This document shows positions 18,189 through 32,837 of a DNA stretch of 39,368 bases, piece after piece. Under the pieces are notes generated by a model. The model was not told the origin of the DNA, searched no databases, and saw only the letters and a program-made list of their open reading frames with translations. Each line of letters begins with the position of its first letter. Positions within the stretch are counted from its first letter, which is position 1. The position numbers and the translations under genes are program-made. Source of the stretch: Escherichia phage Sekstaphage-1; sequence record OR545379; one strand, written 5' to 3'.

Positions 18189-19796
18189 ATGGCTGACTCT
18201 AAACGTACAGGCTTAGGCGAAGACGGTGCTAAAGCTACCTATGACCGCCTAACTAACGACCGTAGAGCCTATGAGACTCGTGCGGAAAACTGTGCGCAAT
18301 ACACCATTCCGTCCTTGTTCCCGAAGGAGTCCGATAACGAATCTACCGACTACACGACTCCGTGGCAGGCTGTAGGTGCGCGGGGTCTTAACAATCTGGC
18401 CTCTAAATTAATGCTGGCACTATTCCCGATGCAGTCGTGGATGAAGCTGACCATTAGTGAATATGAGGCGAAGCAGCTTGTTGGAGACCCTGATGGACTC
18501 GCTAAGGTGGACGAAGGTCTGTCTATGGTTGAGCGTATTATCATGAATTATATCGAATCCAACAGTTACCGTGTAACACTCTTTGAGTGCCTCAAGCAGT
18601 TGATCGTGGCAGGTAACGCACTGCTTTACTTACCGGAACCCGAAGGTAGCTACAATCCGATGAAGCTGTACCGATTGTCTTCTTATGTTGTCCAAAGAGA
18701 CGCATACGGCAATGTGTTACAGATTGTCACTCGTGACCAGATAGCCTTTGGTGCTCTCCCGGAAGACGTTCGGTCTGCGGTAGAGAAAGCTGGCGGTGAG
18801 AAGAAGATGGACGAAATGGTCGATGTGTACACCCATGTGTATCTCGATGAAGAGTCCGGCGATTACCTCAAATACGAGGAAGTAGAGGACGTTGAGATTG
18901 ATGGCTCAGATGCAACCTATCCGACTGACGCGATGCCCTACATTCCGGTTCGCATGGTTCGCATTGATGGCGAGTCTTACGGTCGCTCTTACTGTGAAGA
19001 ATACTTAGGTGACTTAAGGTCGCTTGAGAATCTCCAAGAGGCTATCGTTAAGATGAGTATGATTAGCGCGAAGGTCATCGGTCTGGTCAACCCCGCTGGT
19101 ATTACACAACCGCGTCGATTAACCAAGGCTCAGACTGGTGACTTCGTTCCGGGTCGTCGAGAAGATATTGACTTCCTGCAACTGGAGAAGCAAGCTGACT
19201 TTACCGTAGCGAAAGCTGTGAGTGACCAGATAGAAGCACGCTTATCGTATGCCTTTATGTTGAACTCTGCGGTACAGCGCACAGGTGAACGTGTGACCGC
19301 CGAAGAGATTCGGTACGTTGCGTCAGAACTGGAAGATACGCTTGGTGGCGTCTATTCGATTCTGTCTCAAGAACTGCAATTGCCTCTGGTTCGTGTGCTC
19401 TTGAAGCAACTCCAAGCAACCTCGCAGATTCCTGAGCTACCGAAAGAAGCCGTTGAGCCTACTATCAGTACAGGTCTGGAAGCAATCGGGCGTGGTCAAG
19501 ACCTCGATAAACTGGAGCGCTGTATCTCCGCTTGGGCTGCTCTGGCTCCTATGCGGGGAGACCCGGACATTAACCTTGCTGTCATTAAGCTGCGCATTGC
19601 TAACGCAATTGGTATTGATACTTCTGGTATCCTACTGACGGACGAGCAGAAGCAAGCACTGATGATGCAGGATGCGGCCCAAACAGGTATCGAGAACGCT
19701 GCCGCCACTGGTGGGGCTGGTGTGGGTGCTCTAGCGACCTCAAGTCCAGAAGCTATGCAGGGTGCCGCAGCACAGGCTGGCCTAGACGCCACCTAA
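18189..19796 (+). CDS. 8: Portal (head-tail connector) protein
   Basis: 535-aa ORF with AAGGAGG ribosome-binding site; position and size of T7 gp8. Confidence 0.95.
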   Translation: MADSKRTGLGEDGAKATYDRLTNDRRAYETRAENCAQYTIPSLFPKESDNESTDYTTPWQAVGARGLNNLASKLMLALFPMQSWMKLTISEYEAKQLVGDPDGLAKVDEGLSMVERIIMNYIESNSYRVTLFECLKQLIVAGNALLYLPEPEGSYNPMKLYRLSSYVVQRDAYGNVLQIVTRDQIAFGALPEDVRSAVEKAGGEKKMDEMVDVYTHVYLDEESGDYLKYEEVEDVEIDGSDATYPTDAMPYIPVRMVRIDGESYGRSYCEEYLGDLRSLENLQEAIVKMSMISAKVIGLVNPAGITQPRRLTKAQTGDFVPGRREDIDFLQLEKQADFTVAKAVSDQIEARLSYAFMLNSAVQRTGERVTAEEIRYVASELEDTLGGVYSILSQELQLPLVRVLLKQLQATSQIPELPKEAVEPTISTGLEAIGRGQDLDKLERCISAWAALAPMRGDPDINLAVIKLRIANAIGIDTSGILLTDEQKQALMMQDAAQTGIENAAATGGAGVGALATSSPEAMQGAAAQAGLDAT

Positions 19797-19896: not shown

Positions 19897-20829
19897 ATGG
19901 CTGAATCTAATGCAGACGTTTATGCGTCCTTCGGTGTGAACAACGCGGTAATGACCGGAAGCACACCTACTGAACACGAACAGAATATGCTGAGTCTCGA
20001 TGTTGCTGCCCGTGATGGTGATGATGCAATCGTACTTAGCGAGGAACCAATCTCCAATTCTGATGACCCATATGCATCCGGTGTAGACCCGTTCGCTGAT
20101 GGTGAAGATGATGAGGGCCGCATTCAGGTTCGTATCAGCGAAGATGGCAATGAAGCCGAGTTCGACACTGATGGCGATAACTCTGAGGTGGAGACCGAAG
20201 GTGCGGACGTTGAGTTTGAACCGCTGGGTGACACTCCAGAAGAACTAAGCCAAGTGACTGAGCAATTAGGTCAGCACGAAGAAGGCTTTCAGGCGATGGT
20301 AGAGCAGGCGGTTGAGCGTGGACTTAGCGCAGACTCTGTGACCCGAATCTACGAAGAGTATGAAGCCGATGGTATCTCTGAGAAATCCTACGCGGAACTC
20401 GAAGCTGCTGGCTATAGTCGTGCCTTTGTGGACTCCTACATCTCCGGTCAGGAAGCCCTTGTAGACCAGTACGTCAATCAGGTAGTTGCCTTTGCTGGTG
20501 GTAAGGAGCGCTTTAGCGCAATCCATACGCACCTTGAAGCAACCAACCCGGCTGCTGCTGAGTCCCTTGAGTCTGCCATGATGAACCGAGACTTGGCGAC
20601 CGTCAAAGCGATTATCAATCTGGCTGGTGAGAGCTACACGAAGAAATTCGGTAAGCCTGCCAACCGTAGTGTTACCAAGCGTGCTACTCCGGTTAAACCC
20701 GTAGCTCGTCAGAAAGAGGGCTTTACGAATCAGGCTGAGATGATTAAAGCTATGAGCGACCCGCGCTATCGTAGCGATTCTGCCTACCGCCAAATGGTAG
20801 AACAGAAGGTTATCGACTCCAGTTTCTAA
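19897..20829 (+). CDS. 9: Capsid scaffolding protein
   Basis: 310 aa from ATG 19897 (MAESNADVYASFGVN...), acidic, collinear with T7 gp9; AGGAGA ribosome-binding site. The track start at 19837 is an upstream extension. Confidence 0.9.
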   Translation: MAESNADVYASFGVNNAVMTGSTPTEHEQNMLSLDVAARDGDDAIVLSEEPISNSDDPYASGVDPFADGEDDEGRIQVRISEDGNEAEFDTDGDNSEVETEGADVEFEPLGDTPEELSQVTEQLGQHEEGFQAMVEQAVERGLSADSVTRIYEEYEADGISEKSYAELEAAGYSRAFVDSYISGQEALVDQYVNQVVAFAGGKERFSAIHTHLEATNPAAAESLESAMMNRDLATVKAIINLAGESYTKKFGKPANRSVTKRATPVKPVARQKEGFTNQAEMIKAMSDPRYRSDSAYRQMVEQKVIDSSF

Positions 20830-20850
20830 TTAACCCTCACTAAAGGGAGA
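20828..20850 (+). promoter_or_regulatory. Phage RNAP promoter (phi10-like)
   Basis: AATTAACCCTCACTAAAGGGAGA, exact consensus. Confidence 0.9.
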
Positions 20851-20985
20851 GACCATAGATGCCTACAATGGTTGAATCACCTGAGCACAGAACTTTGTGG
20901 TCACTCCCATAGGTGAAACATTGAGAACCAACTCGATTCAAGTAGTAACCAAACTTTTCTTTAAATTAACATAAGGAGATTCAAC

Positions 20986-22023
20986 ATGGCTAACATTCAA
21001 GGCGGACAGCAAATTGGTACTAATCAGGGTAAGGGTCAGTCCGCAGCGGACAAATTGGCGCTGTTCCTGAAAGTGTTCGGCGGTGAAGTCCTGACGGCTT
21101 TCGCTCGCACCTCCGTGACCATGCCTCGTCACATGCTGCGCTCTATTGCTTCTGGTAAGTCCGCACAGTTCCCTGTGATTGGTCGCACCAAAGCTGCTTA
21201 CCTGAAACCGGGTGAGAACCTCGATGACAAACGTAAGGATATCAAACACACCGAGAAGGTAATCCACATTGATGGCCTGCTGACTGCGGACGTTCTGATT
21301 TACGACATTGAGGACGCGCTGAACCACTACGACGTTCGCGCTGAGTACACCGCACAGTTGGGTGAATCTCTGGCGATGGCGGCTGACGGTGCTGTACTGG
21401 CAGAACTGGCTGGTCTGGTTAACCTGCCGGACGCCTCCAATGAGAACATTGAGGGTCTCGGTAAGCCAACCGTACTGACTCTGGTTAAACCGACCGCTGG
21501 CGACCTTACAGACCCGGTTGAGCTGGGTAAAGCGATTATTGCTCAGTTGACTATCGCTCGTGCATCCCTGACCAAGAACTACGTTCCGGCTGCTGACCGC
21601 ACCTTCTACACCACTCCAGACAACTACTCTGCGATTCTGGCTGCCCTGATGCCGAACGCTGCAAACTATCAGGCACTGATTGACCCTGAGCGCGGTACTA
21701 TCCGTAACGTGATGGGCTTCGAAGTGGTTGAGGTTCCACACCTGACCGCTGGTGGCGCTGGTGATACCCGTGAGGATGCCCCGGCTGACCAGAAGCACGC
21801 TTTCCCGGCGACTTCCAGCACTACCGTTAAGGTTGCTCTGGATAACGTTGTTGGCCTGTTCCAGCACCGCTCTGCGGTTGGTACGGTCAAACTGAAAGAC
21901 TTGGCTCTGGAGCGTGCTCGTCGTGCGAACTATCAGGCTGACCAGATTATCGCTAAGTACGCGATGGGTCACGGCGGTCTGCGTCCAGAAGCTGCTGGCG
22001 CTATCGTGCTCCCAAAGGCGTAG
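20986..22023 (+). CDS. 10A: Major capsid protein 10A
   Basis: 345 aa, highly similar to T7 gp10A (MANIQGGQQIGTNQGKG...LRPEAAGAIVLPKA); AAGGAGA ribosome-binding site. Confidence 0.97.
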   Translation: MANIQGGQQIGTNQGKGQSAADKLALFLKVFGGEVLTAFARTSVTMPRHMLRSIASGKSAQFPVIGRTKAAYLKPGENLDDKRKDIKHTEKVIHIDGLLTADVLIYDIEDALNHYDVRAEYTAQLGESLAMAADGAVLAELAGLVNLPDASNENIEGLGKPTVLTLVKPTAGDLTDPVELGKAIIAQLTIARASLTKNYVPAADRTFYTTPDNYSAILAALMPNAANYQALIDPERGTIRNVMGFEVVEVPHLTAGGAGDTREDAPADQKHAFPATSSTTVKVALDNVVGLFQHRSAVGTVKLKDLALERARRANYQADQIIAKYAMGHGGLRPEAAGAIVLPKA

Positions 22024-22286
22024 GAGTAATTCCCGACCCCACTGGAGTTGCGTTAAGTCAAAAGACTATGACGCTTGTTGAGGGTGCATCCCGTGCCCTC
22101 ACAGGAACAGTCCAGCCTTCCGATGCGAACCAGTCGCTAATCTGGACGTCTTCTGCTGAAGGTGTGGCTGTATGGGAAGCTGGAAAGGTTGTCGCTAAAG
22201 GTGTTGGAACAGCAGAGATTACAGCTACCACCGTCAATGGCCTGACCGCTTCCTGTAAGGTGACTGTTAACGCCGCAACGTCTTAA
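20986..22286 (+). CDS. 10B: Minor capsid protein 10B (frameshift product of 10A with a C-terminal Ig-like extension)
   Basis: The -1 frame downstream of the slippery site encodes about 90 aa including a Big_2-like segment (TVQPSDANQSLIWTSSAEGVAVWEAGKVVAKGVGTAEITATTVNGLTASCKVTVNA). Confidence 0.6.
22011..22017 (+). promoter_or_regulatory. Candidate -1 programmed ribosomal frameshift heptamer C_CCA_AAG
   Basis: X_XXY_YYZ slippery sequence 2 codons before the 10A stop; the -1 frame stays open from here to 22286. Confidence 0.6.
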
Positions 22287-22449
22287 AACACGTAGTGCCC
22301 AATTAGGGCATCATGTGGCGTGAAGCACTCTCAAGCCTCGAAGTGGCACATACGTCTGACTATGGGGACTACCAAGAGCTACGACTATCATTTGGGCAAC
22401 CACCCTGAAAGCTCGTTGTGATTGGGATAACAATCTACTAATATGCAAA

Positions 22450-22488
22450 CCCCTTGGGTTCCCTCTTTGGGAGTCTGAGGGGTTTTTT
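22450..22488 (+). terminator. Major late terminator (Tphi-like)
   Basis: 14-bp GC-rich stem CCCCTTGGGTTCCC / GGGAGTCTGAGGGG followed by TTTTTT; resembles T7 Tphi. Confidence 0.85.
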
Positions 22489-22489
22489 G

Positions 22490-22512
22490 CTTAAACCCTC
22501 ACTAACAGGAGG
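22490..22512 (+). promoter_or_regulatory. Phage RNAP promoter (phi11-like) directly after Tphi
   Basis: cTTAAACCCTCACTAACAGGAGg. Confidence 0.75.
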
Positions 22513-22519
22513 TATCATT

Positions 22520-23110
22520 ATGCGTTCTTATGAGATGAACATTGAGACCGCAGAAGAGCTATCAGCCGTCAACGACATTCTGGCTTCCATCGGTGAGCCA
22601 CCAGTATCGACCCTTGAGGGTGATGCAAACGCTGATGTTACAAATGCTCGACGTGTGCTCAACAAGATTAACCGACAGATTCAGTCACGAGGATGGACAT
22701 TCAACATCGAAGAGGGCGTGACTCTTCTACCAGATGCATTCTCTGGCATGATACCGTTTAGCTCTGACTATCTGTCAGTAATGGCTACAAGCGGTCAGAC
22801 CCAATATGTCAACCGTGGTGGCTATCTCTATGACCGCTCTGCGAAGACTGACCGATTTCCTTCTGGTGTTCAGGTCAACCTGATTCGTCTGAGAGAGTTC
22901 GATGAGATGCCTGAGTGCTTCCGTAACTACATCGTCACCAAGGCTTCACGCCAGTTCAACAACCGATTCTTCGGTGCGCCGGAGGTTGATGGGGTGCTCC
23001 AAGAAGAAGAACAGGAAGCGTGGCGTGCGTGCTTCGAGTACGAACTAGACTACGGCAACTACAACATGCTGGACGGTGACGCATTCACCTCTGGTCTACT
23101 TAACCGCTAA
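22520..23110 (+). CDS. 11: Tail tubular protein A (gp11)
   Basis: 196 aa from ATG 22520 ([35 protein letters not shown]...), collinear with T7 gp11. The track start at 22454 is an upstream extension. Confidence 0.95.
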
Positions 23111-28874: not shown

Positions 28875-31800
28875 ATGAGTTACGATAAGAACAAACCTAG
28901 CGAGTTCGATGGGTTATTTCAAAAAGCGGCAGACAATCATGGGGTCTCCTATGACCTGCTTCGTAAATTAGCATTCAACGAATCCAGCTTTAATCCAAAG
29001 GCCAAATCCCCAACTGGCCCGAAGGGTCTCATGCAGTTCACCAAAGGTACAGCCACTGCGCTTGGCCTCAAGGTTACTGACGCTGAGGACGATGACCGTT
29101 ACAACCCTGAGTTGGCTGTGGATGCAGCCGCTCGTCACCTGAGTGACCTCATTCGGAAATACGATGGGGATGAACTCAAAGCTGCCTTGGCGTATAATCA
29201 GGGCGAGGGACGCAACGGTGCTCCGCAGATACAGGCTTATGATAAAGGCGATTGGGCCTCAATATCTGAGGAAGGTCGTAACTACATGCGTAACCTGATG
29301 GATGTAGCCAATAGCCCACGTAAGGGAGACTTGGAGGCGTTCGGTGGTATCACCCCAAAGGCTAAGGGTATTCCCTCTGAGGAAGCCTTTGCGGGAATCG
29401 GGAAGAAGCAGACGGTAGGCACTGACCTGCCGGAGTCAACTGGATTCAAAGTGGAGGGTAAAGAGCAGCAAGCACCTAACATGCCTTATGCTAAGGACTT
29501 TTGGGAAAAGACTGGAACAACACTGGACGAGTTTAATTCGCGTTCAACCTTCTTCGGAATCGGAGATGCCACAAGTGCAGAACTTCACAACTCCGTATTG
29601 GGTGTGGCTTTTCGTGCCGCTCGTAGTGATGACGGTTTTGATTTATTCAAGGACACCATTACGCCGACTCGCTGGAACAGCCATACGTGGACTCCAGAAG
29701 AGTTAGAGCGTATCCGTAAGGAAGTGAAGAATCCAGACTACATTAACGTGGTCACTGGTGGTTCTCCTGAGAATCTGGATGCCCTCATTAAGATGGCTAA
29801 CGACAACTATGCGATGGACGCCCAAGCTGCTGATGCTGGTATTGGCGCTAGGCTGACTGCTGGTATCGTCGGTGCAGGTGTTGACCCACTGAGCTATGTT
29901 CCTCTAGTGGGTGTAGCCGGGAAGGGTCTCAAGGTGGCTAACAAGGCTTTCATTGTTGGTACTCAAAGTGCCGGACTCGCGGTTGCCTCTGAGGGTCTCC
30001 GTACATCAATCGCTGGTGGAGAATCCCACTATGCTGATGCTGCTTTAGGCGGTCTGATGTTCGGTGCTGGGATGAGTGCAATAAGTGATGCTATCGCGGC
30101 TGGTATTCGGCGTTCCCGTGGGAATGAGGTTGTTAATGACTTCGCTCCTATGGCACACCGATTGGAAGCCCGTGAGACCGCTCAGAACACTGGTGGGGAA
30201 GACCTGACCCGTATGCCTAGCGAGAACCGTGTGTTCGACCGTGAGCACGCTGGCGTTGAGTATTCACCTCTGGAGACCGAGCCGGGTGCCGTTGTGTTGC
30301 CTCAAGGTCAAATCCTGAGCGACACCAACCCGCTGAACCCTCAGACTCTTAGCGAGTTCGAGGCGGTCAACCCTGAGCGTGCAGCGCGTGGTATCTCTTT
30401 GGGTGGATTCACTGAGATTGGCTTGAAGACTCTACGCTCAGAGAACCCGACTGTTCGCTCCATTGCGAGTGACCTTGTGCGCTCTCCGACTGGTATGGAG
30501 TCCGGGACTTCTGGTAAGTTCGGCGCGACAGCTTCTGACATTAAGGAGCGACTCCACGCGAACAACCAGCGCACCTACAATCAACTTTATGATGCTGTAC
30601 GCGCTGCAATGAAAGACCCTGAGTTCTCCACTGGTGGTTCCAAGATGAGCCGTAAGGAAATCAGACAGGAAATCTACAAACGTGCAGCCCTAGCTATTGA
30701 GCGACCTGAGCTTCAAGCGAACCTGACAAAGGGTGAGCGGAATGTGATGAATATCCTCAAGCAGCACTTTGACCTAAAACGTGAAATCATGGAGAACCCA
30801 TCAATCTTCGGTAACACCAAGGCAACCAGTATCTTCCCCGGCTCACGCCATAAGGGAACCTACGTGCCTAACGTGTATGACCGAGCACTCAAGATTGATA
30901 TGATTAAACGGTATGGTAATGACGGCTTGCAGCGAGCAATCGCGGAGTCGTGGTTGACCTCTTATCGTGCTCGCCCCGAAGTCAAGGCGCGTGTCGATGA
31001 GTACCTGATGGAACTTAGCGGTCTCAAGTCTGTGCAGGAAGTTACGCCAGAGATGGTGCAGAAGCACGCAATGGATAAGGCGTATGGTATTTCACACACA
31101 GACCAGTTCTCTGCATCCTCTATCATTGAGGACAACATTGAGGGTCTGGTGGGAATCGAGAACAATAACTTCTTGGAAGCCCGCAACATGTTCGACAGTG
31201 ACATGGCGGTGACTCTCCCGGATGGTAACACGTTCTCTGTGAATGACCTGCGTACTTATGACATGGCTGAAATTCTACCTGCATATGACCGCCGAGTTGA
31301 TGGTGATGTTGCAATCATGGGTGGTTCCGGTAAGACCACCAAAGACCTGAAAGATGAAATCATGGCACTAGACAAGCAGTCAGAAGGCAACGGTACGCTG
31401 AAAGGTGAGGTCGAAGCCCTAAAGGACACCGTGAAGATTCTAACTGGTCGCGCTAGAAGGAACCCGGAAGGCGCTTGGGGCACAGCCCTACGCTCAGTCA
31501 ATGACCTTACGTTCTTCGCTAAGAACGCCTACATGGGTGCACAGAACATTACCGAAATCGCTGGTATGCTGGCTAAAGGTAACGTCTCTGCGATAACTCA
31601 TGGAATCCCTATGATTAACGATTGGGTCAACCGTGGGAAACCGCTGCGTGCCTCCGAGATTAAAGAGCTACACGGAATGGTGTTTGGTAAGGAACTAGAC
31701 CAGTTAATCCGTCCGGGACGTGAAGACCATGTACGCCGCCTTCGGGAGTCTACGGACACCAACGCTGCGGTTGCTAACGTGGTCGGTACGATTCGGTTCG

Positions 31801-32837
31801 GCACTCAAGAGTTGGCTGCACGTTCTCCTTGGACGTTGATGCTCAACGGCACCTCCAACTACATTCTAGATGCTGCCCGTCAGGGTGTGCTTGGAGATGT
31901 GGCTGGTGCAGCCCTAGCCGGGAAAGGCTCCAAGTTCGGCAAGGCGAATTACCTTAAGTCTGCCTCAATCAGCCCTGAGCAGTGGAACGGAATCAAGCAG
32001 TTGTTCCGCGACCACGCGACTCGTGAGGCTGACGGTAAGTTTACCATCAAGGATAAACAGGCTTTTGCTAATGACCCACGCTCAATGGACTTGTGGCGTC
32101 TGGCTGACAAGGTGGCTGATGAGACTATACTTCGTCCACACAAGGTTTCCTCACAGGATGCCAAGGCATTCGGTGCCGGAGTTAAGATGGTGATGCAGTT
32201 TAAGAACTTCGTCATCAAGTCCCTGAACTCCCGGTTTGTCCGTAGCTTCTATGAGGCAACGAAGAACAACCGAGCGTTAGACCAAGCGTTGACTCATGTC
32301 ATCTCCTTAGGTCTGGCTGGCGGTTACTACGTTGGTCAGGCACACCTCAAGGCTGCAAGCCTACAGGAACATAAACGTAAGGAGTACCTTAAGAACGCAC
32401 TTGACCCGAAGATGATTGCCCATGCATCAATCTCTCGTAGTTCGCACTTAGGCGCACCATTGGGTATCTATGACATGCTCGCTGGGATGGTTGGCAGCGA
32501 TACCTATAAGTATACACGCTCCACGGTACTCCCTAAAGAGTCTGAGAAGCGCGACCCTAGCAAGGCAGCAACGGGTAGACAGGTGGCTTCAACCATCGCT
32601 GGTGCGGTTGGTGAGCAGGTTCCGGGTTTGGGGTTTATTGGCTCTGTAGGAGCAACAGCAATTAATGCTGCTTCCCTACTGTCTTCTCCCAACAAAACAA
32701 CCGCTCTGGAGTTCCGTACAGGTCTCTTCAACACCTCTCGTGAGTTGATTCCTAATGACCCGCTCTCACAGCAACTCATCATGAAAATCTACGAGGCCAA
32801 CGGCATCCGCATAAAGGAGTCCCCGAAGAAACAATAA
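28875..32837 (+). CDS. 16: Internal virion (core) protein D with N-terminal lytic transglycosylase domain (gp16)
   Basis: 1320 aa collinear with T7 gp16; N-terminal transglycosylase-type segment GPKGLMQFTKGTA...AALAYNQGEG. Confidence 0.95.
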   Translation: MSYDKNKPSEFDGLFQKAADNHGVSYDLLRKLAFNESSFNPKAKSPTGPKGLMQFTKGTATALGLKVTDAEDDDRYNPELAVDAAARHLSDLIRKYDGDELKAALAYNQGEGRNGAPQIQAYDKGDWASISEEGRNYMRNLMDVANSPRKGDLEAFGGITPKAKGIPSEEAFAGIGKKQTVGTDLPESTGFKVEGKEQQAPNMPYAKDFWEKTGTTLDEFNSRSTFFGIGDATSAELHNSVLGVAFRAARSDDGFDLFKDTITPTRWNSHTWTPEELERIRKEVKNPDYINVVTGGSPENLDALIKMANDNYAMDAQAADAGIGARLTAGIVGAGVDPLSYVPLVGVAGKGLKVANKAFIVGTQSAGLAVASEGLRTSIAGGESHYADAALGGLMFGAGMSAISDAIAAGIRRSRGNEVVNDFAPMAHRLEARETAQNTGGEDLTRMPSENRVFDREHAGVEYSPLETEPGAVVLPQGQILSDTNPLNPQTLSEFEAVNPERAARGISLGGFTEIGLKTLRSENPTVRSIASDLVRSPTGMESGTSGKFGATASDIKERLHANNQRTYNQLYDAVRAAMKDPEFSTGGSKMSRKEIRQEIYKRAALAIERPELQANLTKGERNVMNILKQHFDLKREIMENPSIFGNTKATSIFPGSRHKGTYVPNVYDRALKIDMIKRYGNDGLQRAIAESWLTSYRARPEVKARVDEYLMELSGLKSVQEVTPEMVQKHAMDKAYGISHTDQFSASSIIEDNIEGLVGIENNNFLEARNMFDSDMAVTLPDGNTFSVNDLRTYDMAEILPAYDRRVDGDVAIMGGSGKTTKDLKDEIMALDKQSEGNGTLKGEVEALKDTVKILTGRARRNPEGAWGTALRSVNDLTFFAKNAYMGAQNITEIAGMLAKGNVSAITHGIPMINDWVNRGKPLRASEIKELHGMVFGKELDQLIRPGREDHVRRLRESTDTNAAVANVVGTIRFGTQELAARSPWTLMLNGTSNYILDAARQGVLGDVAGAALAGKGSKFGKANYLKSASISPEQWNGIKQLFRDHATREADGKFTIKDKQAFANDPRSMDLWRLADKVADETILRPHKVSSQDAKAFGAGVKMVMQFKNFVIKSLNSRFVRSFYEATKNNRALDQALTHVISLGLAGGYYVGQAHLKAASLQEHKRKEYLKNALDPKMIAHASISRSSHLGAPLGIYDMLAGMVGSDTYKYTRSTVLPKESEKRDPSKAATGRQVASTIAGAVGEQVPGLGFIGSVGATAINAASLLSSPNKTTALEFRTGLFNTSRELIPNDPLSQQLIMKIYEANGIRIKESPKKQ

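Follow-up and report, generated by a model that had tools for sequence, protein, structure and literature searches.

The closest described system to the locus studied here is gene 10 of bacteriophage T3 (Condreay, Wright & Molineux 1989), in which the same slippery heptamer stands at the same place and leads to a 433-aa minor capsid protein, 10B, carrying a Big_2 domain (91% amino acid identity). T3 10B consists of 347 + 86 aa and is thus 86 aa longer than the major capsid protein, 10A (PMC3276506); citing Condreay 1989, that article reports both proteins, 10A and 10B, in T3 particles and describes 10B as dispensable. Similarly, Atkins et al. 2016 (PMC5009743), with reference to Fraser et al. 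2006 and to Condreay et al. 1989, describe the extension of the T3 coat protein by -1 frameshifting as Ig-like and that of T7 as not Ig-like. The slip is also present in public annotation. GenBank record X17255 (T3) splits the 10B CDS into two pieces and notes a 'frameshift at 19084', a position that corresponds to 22014 of our sequence, and a further T3 record (AJ318471) describes the product as 'minor capsid protein 10B, frameshift due to ribosome sliding'. For Yersinia phage phiYeO3-12 (AJ251805) the entry reads 'ribosome slippage at 22682-22687; -1 frameshift', corresponding to our positions 22011-22016.

We analysed the 39,368-nt DNA of Escherichia phage Sekstaphage-1, which is referred to in full as the window. 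A gene 10 region of 1515 nt aligned without gaps to phiYeO3-12 and to several T3 records with 96% nucleotide identity, and phiYeO3-12 10A/10B shares the heptamer and the flanking phi10, Tphi and gene 11. Over 25 kb, the window was 92-95% identical to the genomes of Klebsiella, Serratia and Enterobacter phages of Teetrevirus, the closest being Klebsiella phages such as VSG32 (95%). Gene order corresponded one-to-one to that of Teetrevirus (gene 9, phi10, 10A/10B, Tphi, phi11, gene 11). Judged by sequence identity and gene order, the window is that of a T3/phiYeO3-12-like phage of the genus Teetrevirus, a relationship that was overlooked in the first-pass annotation, made from the letters alone. 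Because the window is T3-like, the feature at the end of gene 10 corresponds to the classical T3 gene 10A/10B frameshift, the Ig-like nature of which is already in the literature. The feature is therefore described and annotated rather than new, and our additions to it are minor: a shorter 10A tail, the absence of a canonical stimulator and a conserved distal hairpin.

Gene 10, its slippery site and the open -1 frame

Gene 10A appears in the list of open reading frames on the + strand (20986..22023), reading in the 0 frame from 20986 to a stop codon at 22021-22023. The 345-aa product is the major capsid protein, with a match to the Pfam family Gp10A-like (PF21703, E = 5e-111), the T7-group major capsid family, and the gene has 96% nucleotide identity to gene 10 of T3 and phiYeO3-12. 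Upstream on the same strand, the T3-type late promoter phi10 (20828..20850; AATTAACCCTCACTAAAGGGAGA) was read directly and falls, within the ungapped 1515-nt match, on the annotated phi10 of T3 and phiYeO3-12; a strong ribosome-binding site lies between this promoter and the 10A ORF. The gene 10 transcript ends at Tphi (22447..22485, + strand), a rho-independent terminator for the phage RNA polymerase, the sequence of which was read and which maps onto the annotated Tphi of T3. Between the 10B stop and Tphi there are ~160 nt (22287-22446) that are apparently non-coding, gave no Rfam match and are also found in T3 and phiYeO3-12. This spacer is missing from T3-like phages with a short T7-type 10B (phiSG-JL2 and LL2), in which the terminator follows directly after the stop.

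The 3' end of 10A reads GCT ATC GTG CTC CCA AAG GCG TAG in the 0 frame and contains the slippery heptamer C_CCA_AAG (22011..22017, + strand). The heptamer is in phase with the 0 frame, as checked by reading, so that slippage would convert P-site CCA to CCC and A-site AAG to AAA. Its AAG lies two codons ahead of the 10A stop, exactly where the first-pass annotation had placed it. The heptamer is identical in T3, phiYeO3-12, KNP3, SH2 and IMG/VR relatives, and is invariant across the T3-type relatives sampled. From 22011 the -1 frame runs for 91 sense codons to a TAA at 22284-22286, in agreement with the opening of about 90 codons that had been estimated, and encodes the peptide PKGVGVIPDPTGVALSQKTMTLVEGASRALTGTVQPSDANQSLIWTSSAEGVAVWEAGKVVAKGVGTAEITATTVNGLTASCKVTVNAATS. 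The -1 frame part of gene 10B itself (22017..22286, + strand) comprises 89 codons and the TAA, and the T3 10B CDS is annotated alike. Predicted 10B is join(20986..22017, 22017..22286), giving 344 + 89 = 433 aa.

Chance was assessed by scoring in-phase X_XXY_YYZ heptamers in the 28 long + strand ORFs of the window (~10,860 codons). Fourteen were found; for 13 of the 14 the -1 frame closed within 2-13 codons, and the sole long opening was at 22011. Across all codon positions, the -1 frame was open for at least 92 codons at 0.46%, with a median of 6. The combination of a heptamer with a long -1 frame exceeds chance expectation. A second in-phase C_CCA_AAG is present at 29354-29360, inside a large ORF for an internal virion protein (28875..32837), but the -1 frame is shut there after three codons and a slip would merely truncate that protein.

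With a probability of about 93%, we interpret this locus as the programmed -1 ribosomal frameshift site between 10A and 10B in a T3-like phage, yielding a minority of Ig-bearing 10B. The majority of ribosomes would read CTC CCA AAG GCG TAG and release the 345-aa 10A. A minority would slip back one base on C_CCA_AAG by standard tandem slippage, with tRNA-Pro moving from CCA to CCC and tRNA-Lys from AAG to AAA, and would continue for 89 codons in the -1 frame to produce the 433-aa 10B. As 10B would contain the whole 10A shell fold, it could be expected to co-assemble into the capsid, such that a fraction of subunits would display the Ig-like domain on the outside of the particle. What Sekstaphage-1 itself shows is an in-phase site, a -1 frame that is open and conserved, and an extension whose fold class can be assigned. 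The earlier proposal of a frameshifted minor capsid protein is supported in each of its elements, and the T3 (X17255, AJ318471) and phiYeO3-12 (AJ251805) records annotate the slip at the same bases. By analogy with the T3 literature, 10B of Sekstaphage-1 would also be made, present in virions and dispensable.

Comparison with T3 bears on how the downstream sequence is read. Across the extension there are 22 nucleotide differences, concentrated at third positions of the -1 frame (13/22); 13 of the 22 lie in codons that are synonymous in the -1 frame, the corresponding counts being 5 and 4 for the other two frames. Just after the heptamer, T3 has GGTGTCGGAG where Sekstaphage-1 has GGCGTAGGAG, a difference of two substitutions. 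In the 0 frame these change GTG TCG GAG TAA of T3 to GCG TAG (Val->Ala and Ser->stop), and GTG->GCG together with TCG->TAG thereby shorten 10A from 347 aa in T3 to 345 aa here. Both of these stop-moving substitutions are silent in the -1 frame (GGT->GGC and GTC->GTA). The early 10A stop also occurs in Klebsiella phage ChM-G5, and an independent GTG TAG version is found in other relatives. At the protein level, the extension is 100% identical to that of ChM-G5 and 91% identical to that of T3 (eight amino acid differences). The A_AAG slip, the linker KGV(G/S)V(I)PDPTGVTLSQKTM and the Big_2 domain are kept, with synonymous variation, as far as the Pseudomonas phages of Pifdecavirus. This pattern of substitutions is indicative of purifying selection acting on the -1 frame. 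The GenBank entry for ChM-G5, the closest relative (OR287804; our locus L004, 940-1770), divides the capsid gene into three short CDSs, each named 'major capsid protein', and these breaks of frame probably come from sequencing or assembly errors.

The predicted Ig-like extension of the capsid protein

In the 10B extension, the linker GVGVIPDP is short and leads into a single Big_2 Ig-like beta-sandwich. Confirming the bacterial Ig-like pattern that the first-pass annotation had noticed, Pfam Big_2 (bacterial Ig-like, group 2; PF02368) matched residues 11-84 of the 91-aa peptide (22041..22262, + strand) with E = 5.2e-8 and 33.2 bits, against a curated gathering cut-off of 22.8; the extensions of relatives scored 39.8 bits in T3 and 58.3 bits in the KNP3-type variant. 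The peptide also matched PHROG 215 (1.4e-17), a family described as 'structural protein with Ig domain', and its sequence matches among solved structures include phage and surface proteins bearing such domains (7z47, Hoc-like protein). AlphaFold2 produced an all-beta model of seven strands (E18-23 through E79-87) after a disordered linker of 15 residues; the best model had a pLDDT of 73.5 and a pTM of 0.62, the remaining four of five being at ~41 pLDDT, and the underlying alignment was shallow. A search for homologous proteins with the extension returned four near-identical 72-aa ORFs and nothing else, and this scarcity, which accounts for the shallow alignment, follows from frameshifted extensions being seldom called as genes. 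The top Foldseek matches of the model in the PDB, with a probability of 1.00 and query-normalised TM-scores of 0.62-0.64, were a Big_2-CBM56 protein (7r3t), Leptospira LigA (8gyr), the lambda tail-tube protein gpV (2l04) and the Big_2 domain of a GH10 xylanase (4hu8), with further matches to T5 pb6 and intimin. Agreement between Pfam, PHROG, AlphaFold2 and Foldseek supports assignment of the extension as a Big_2 Ig-like domain.

The Ig-like domain could alternatively be made as a separate 72-aa protein starting at ATG 22068, with no extension of the capsid protein. An ORF with these limits (22068..22286) is in the list of open reading frames, related records call a separate gene at this place ('hypothetical protein', 'major tail protein', 'structural protein with Ig domain' or 'minor capsid protein'), and the protein database holds the extension solely in its 72-aa form. 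However, the sequence upstream of this ATG (AAGTCAAAAGACTATG) is without a Shine-Dalgarno sequence, and the ATG falls within the Big_2 match, which begins nine residues further upstream. Moreover, the -1 frame protein encoded between the heptamer and this ATG is conserved, with synonymous changes, in both Teetrevirus and Pifdecavirus; the -1 frame is the only one in which the two substitutions adjoining the heptamer are silent; and a larger capsid species is established for T3 (PMC5009743, PMC3276506). We therefore regard separate translation of the 72-aa ORF as very unlikely. The predicted tryptic peptide GVGVIPDPTGVALSQK, specific to 10B, is located upstream of ATG 22068.

Under the preferred reading, an Ig-bearing 10B, the displayed domain may serve as an accessory adhesin, binding weakly to carbohydrates or to mucin-like surfaces. 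The parts of PMC13320782 and PMC5009743 that cite Fraser 2006 and Barr 2013 regard the T3 extension as Ig-like and as possibly interacting with mucins or carbohydrates. Such a domain is thought to aid weak sticking to carbohydrate-rich surfaces, for example mucus, and none of this is new for T3. The main value of recognizing the site lies in correct annotation, as it gives the proper 433-aa 10B. For many related phages, such as ChM-G5, SH2, LL2 and Kanksi, the genome records omit the frameshift and list the extension ORF as a gene of its own, labelled 'hypothetical', 'tail' or 'minor capsid'. Correct annotation is relevant to phage therapy with T3-like phages that infect Klebsiella or E. coli, and to the engineering of capsid display.

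RNA structure around and beyond the shift site

A downstream stimulatory hairpin or pseudoknot, a possibility raised in the first-pass annotation, was not found at canonical spacing, the one candidate element being a conserved hairpin 61 nt past the heptamer. Folding of 22018-22080 and 22018-22140, and RNAalifold on nine relatives, gave no canonical stimulator 5-9 nt downstream; reading of the sequence ~10 nt upstream of the heptamer revealed no Shine-Dalgarno-like element, just UGGCG; and an Rfam scan of 20700-22700 produced no match. The fold of 22018-22080 had a free energy of -15.3 kcal/mol and a z-score of -1.57. Two weak local hairpins predicted by folding lie nearest the shift site, at 22028-22049 and 22050-22074 (22028..22074, + strand). 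They were rejected as stimulators as they are weak and show no covariation, and the 5' arm of the first is deleted in a natural variant (L005/L087). An outer stem starting right after the heptamer was also set aside, being too near the ribosome to matter and weakened here by the TAG mutation. The natural variant (IMGVR_UViG_3300038674_000011; L005:1194/L087) has a 15-nt deletion immediately 3' of CCCAAAG, such that 10A stops at a TGA directly after AAG while the -1 frame still runs into the Ig domain (86 aa).

The distal hairpin (22079..22103, + strand; UGAGGGUGCAUCCCGUGCCCUCA) lies in the Ig coding sequence, within the codons for VEGASRAL, and is found in T3-type, KNP3-type and Pseudomonas lineages. 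In RNAalifold and pair counts, 94% of cells were paired as compared to at most 57% with a slid partner, and the covariation score was 0.50 as compared to at most 0.10 with a slid partner. Compensatory changes were of the wobble-wobble kind; the stretch encoding NVGDSKSLT in both Kanksi and PFP1 differs between them by five synonymous changes, and every one of these (5/5) keeps pairing. In 6/6 lineages the hairpin was more stable than synonymous-codon shuffles, of which 1-29/500 were equally stable. An explanation of the hairpin purely as a by-product of the peptide was rejected but is partly true: the peptide alone accounts for -7 to -11 kcal/mol, versus -14 to -18 observed. Control scans of other Big_2 coding regions reached best-window z-scores of -2.5 to -3 somewhere along their length, and the evidence for the hairpin is therefore moderate. 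In one IMG/VR contig (L110), the same hairpin stands at a different distance from a different site, G_GUU_UUC, which argues against a spacing-dependent role. Given the peptide bias, the control z-scores and the L110 spacing, we take the hairpin as a candidate RNA element and not as a demonstrated stimulator. It could be a distal modulator of 10B frameshifting, for example by slowing the leading ribosome or nucleating a larger fold, or it could stabilize the 3' part of the gene 10 mRNA, which is rarely translated, although we consider such a role doubtful. To our knowledge, neither a modulator nor an mRNA-stability role of this kind has been described for T3.

The efficiency of the site bears on whether the heptamer and the -1 ORF might be an inherited relic, with negligible frameshifting and an Ig ORF that is effectively untranslated 3' sequence. 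In E. coli reporters C_CC.A_AA.G was the most efficient heptamer, reaching 54% frameshifting with the IS3 pseudoknot, and the best heptamers without a stimulator gave ~0.3% (Sharma et al., PMC4066793). The yield of 10B in Sekstaphage-1 is uncertain in view of this baseline, and a baseline of that size where there is no nearby stimulator would be consistent with a relic, as would the dispensability of 10B reported for T3 (PMC3276506). Against this, the ORF is intact over 91 codons with substitutions that point to purifying selection in the -1 frame, the heptamer does not vary among the T3-type relatives sampled, and the extension protein is preserved at the levels of identity to ChM-G5 and T3 given above. 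A dead relic is thus highly unlikely, still more so than separate translation.

RNA polymerase slippage requires homopolymer runs much longer than the three A's present here (CCCAAAGG). Slippage of the polymerase on this run, instead of slippage of the ribosome, is the least likely origin of the frame change, because the motif is a perfect in-phase tandem-slippage heptamer and nothing specific to this locus speaks for what is otherwise a known alternative route to trans-frame products (PMC5009743).

Extension modules among relatives and in other phages

We compared 80 IMG/VR loci with a related capsid gene, together with GenBank records, and found three kinds of -1 extension at the homologous position. 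In the first, A_AAG-type sites, which take the form C_CCA_AAG in T3-like phages, are joined to Big_2. The second combines G_GUU_UUC, or G_CCA_AAG in phiSG-JL2 and LL2, with a T7-type extension of 45-58 aa (...LTPxQKAARTRAANKA...) that gave no Pfam match. In the third, seen in many Klebsiella-type contigs, G_GUU_UUC leads into a 98-aa extension of PHROG 7473. These contigs (~34 distinct IMG/VR sequences, L011-L064) have the site and the conserved extension around locus position 2220; PHROG 7473 is a function-unknown family, the extension had no Pfam match, and a strong conserved hairpin starts ~19 nt past the shift site (alifold energy of -39.6 kcal/mol for a 140-nt alignment).

Individual phages cross these categories. 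The contig L110 (IMGVR_UViG_651703077_000001, 550-816) has the T7-type G_GUU_UUC joined to a Big_2 extension (35 bits), indicating that the type of shift site and the type of extension are not strictly linked. Conversely, phiSG-JL2 and LL2 (L091 and L092, ~1225-1381) belong to Teetrevirus and have G_CCA_AAG or ATG CCA AAG, at which the P-site tRNA cannot re-pair, followed by a T7-type 10B; the Ig module is therefore present in only part of the genus. From these sequence comparisons, extension modules are shuffled among the relatives. Such shuffling fits the view put forward in PMC5009743 that recombination brings Ig modules in and that their expression then relies on any recoding mechanism at hand.

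The Pifdecavirus phages phiIBB-PF7A, PFP1 and Kanksi resemble Sekstaphage-1 in that the corresponding codon offers an A_AAG for slippage by -1, and share the first Big_2 domain with 52-60% amino acid identity. Their capsid genes end in ATC GAA AAG GCG TAA or ATC GCA AAG GCG TAA, and the -1 frame then encodes the same linker, KGVSVPDPTGVTLSQKTM, and Big_2, with many synonymous differences from the T3 type. This indicates that both genera have conserved the A_AAG slip in the A site together with the trans-frame Ig module. They differ in that, at C_GAA_AAG and C_GCA_AAG, the P-site codon cannot re-pair, unlike at C_CCA_AAG, and in that an extension may contain a single Big_2 domain, two of them, or Big_2 combined with a GDSL esterase domain. 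In Pseudomonas phage vB_PpuP-Kanksi (PP496424; L094:1286-2710) the -1 frame is open for 482 aa after C_GAA_AAG and encodes Big_2, then a GDSL/SGNH lipase-acylhydrolase (Pfam PF13472, 1e-9), then ~200 residues, annotated as a separate CDS. Kanksi may thus display an enzyme on its capsid through frameshifting.

T7 (Condron, Atkins & Gesteland 1991) likewise has a -1 frameshift a few codons ahead of the 10A stop of a homologous capsid gene, giving a minor capsid species. It differs in its site, G_GUU_UUC, and in an extension of ~53 aa with the motif LTPAQKAARTRAANKA that has no Pfam or Ig match; the T7 frameshift, moreover, needs a distant 3' element near the terminator (PMC5009743). The site given for T7 in the first-pass annotation, G GUU UUC, was accurate, in that T7-type relatives carry G_GTT_TTC at the homologous place, and its statement that the T7 extension is not Ig-like agrees with the absence of a Pfam match for the 45-58 aa extensions and with PMC5009743. 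Beyond this group, the phages described by Fraser et al. 2006, such as Lactobacillus phage A2 with its capsid protein, are alike in having a Big_2-class beta-sandwich at the C terminus of a major structural protein, displayed on a fraction of subunits, but differ in the host proteins that carry it and sometimes in the shift direction, which is +1 in Listeria phage PSA. Finally, the C-terminal Ig-like domain of lambda gpV has a related fold, which the AlphaFold2 model of the Sekstaphage-1 extension matched (2l04), but lambda carries this domain in frame.
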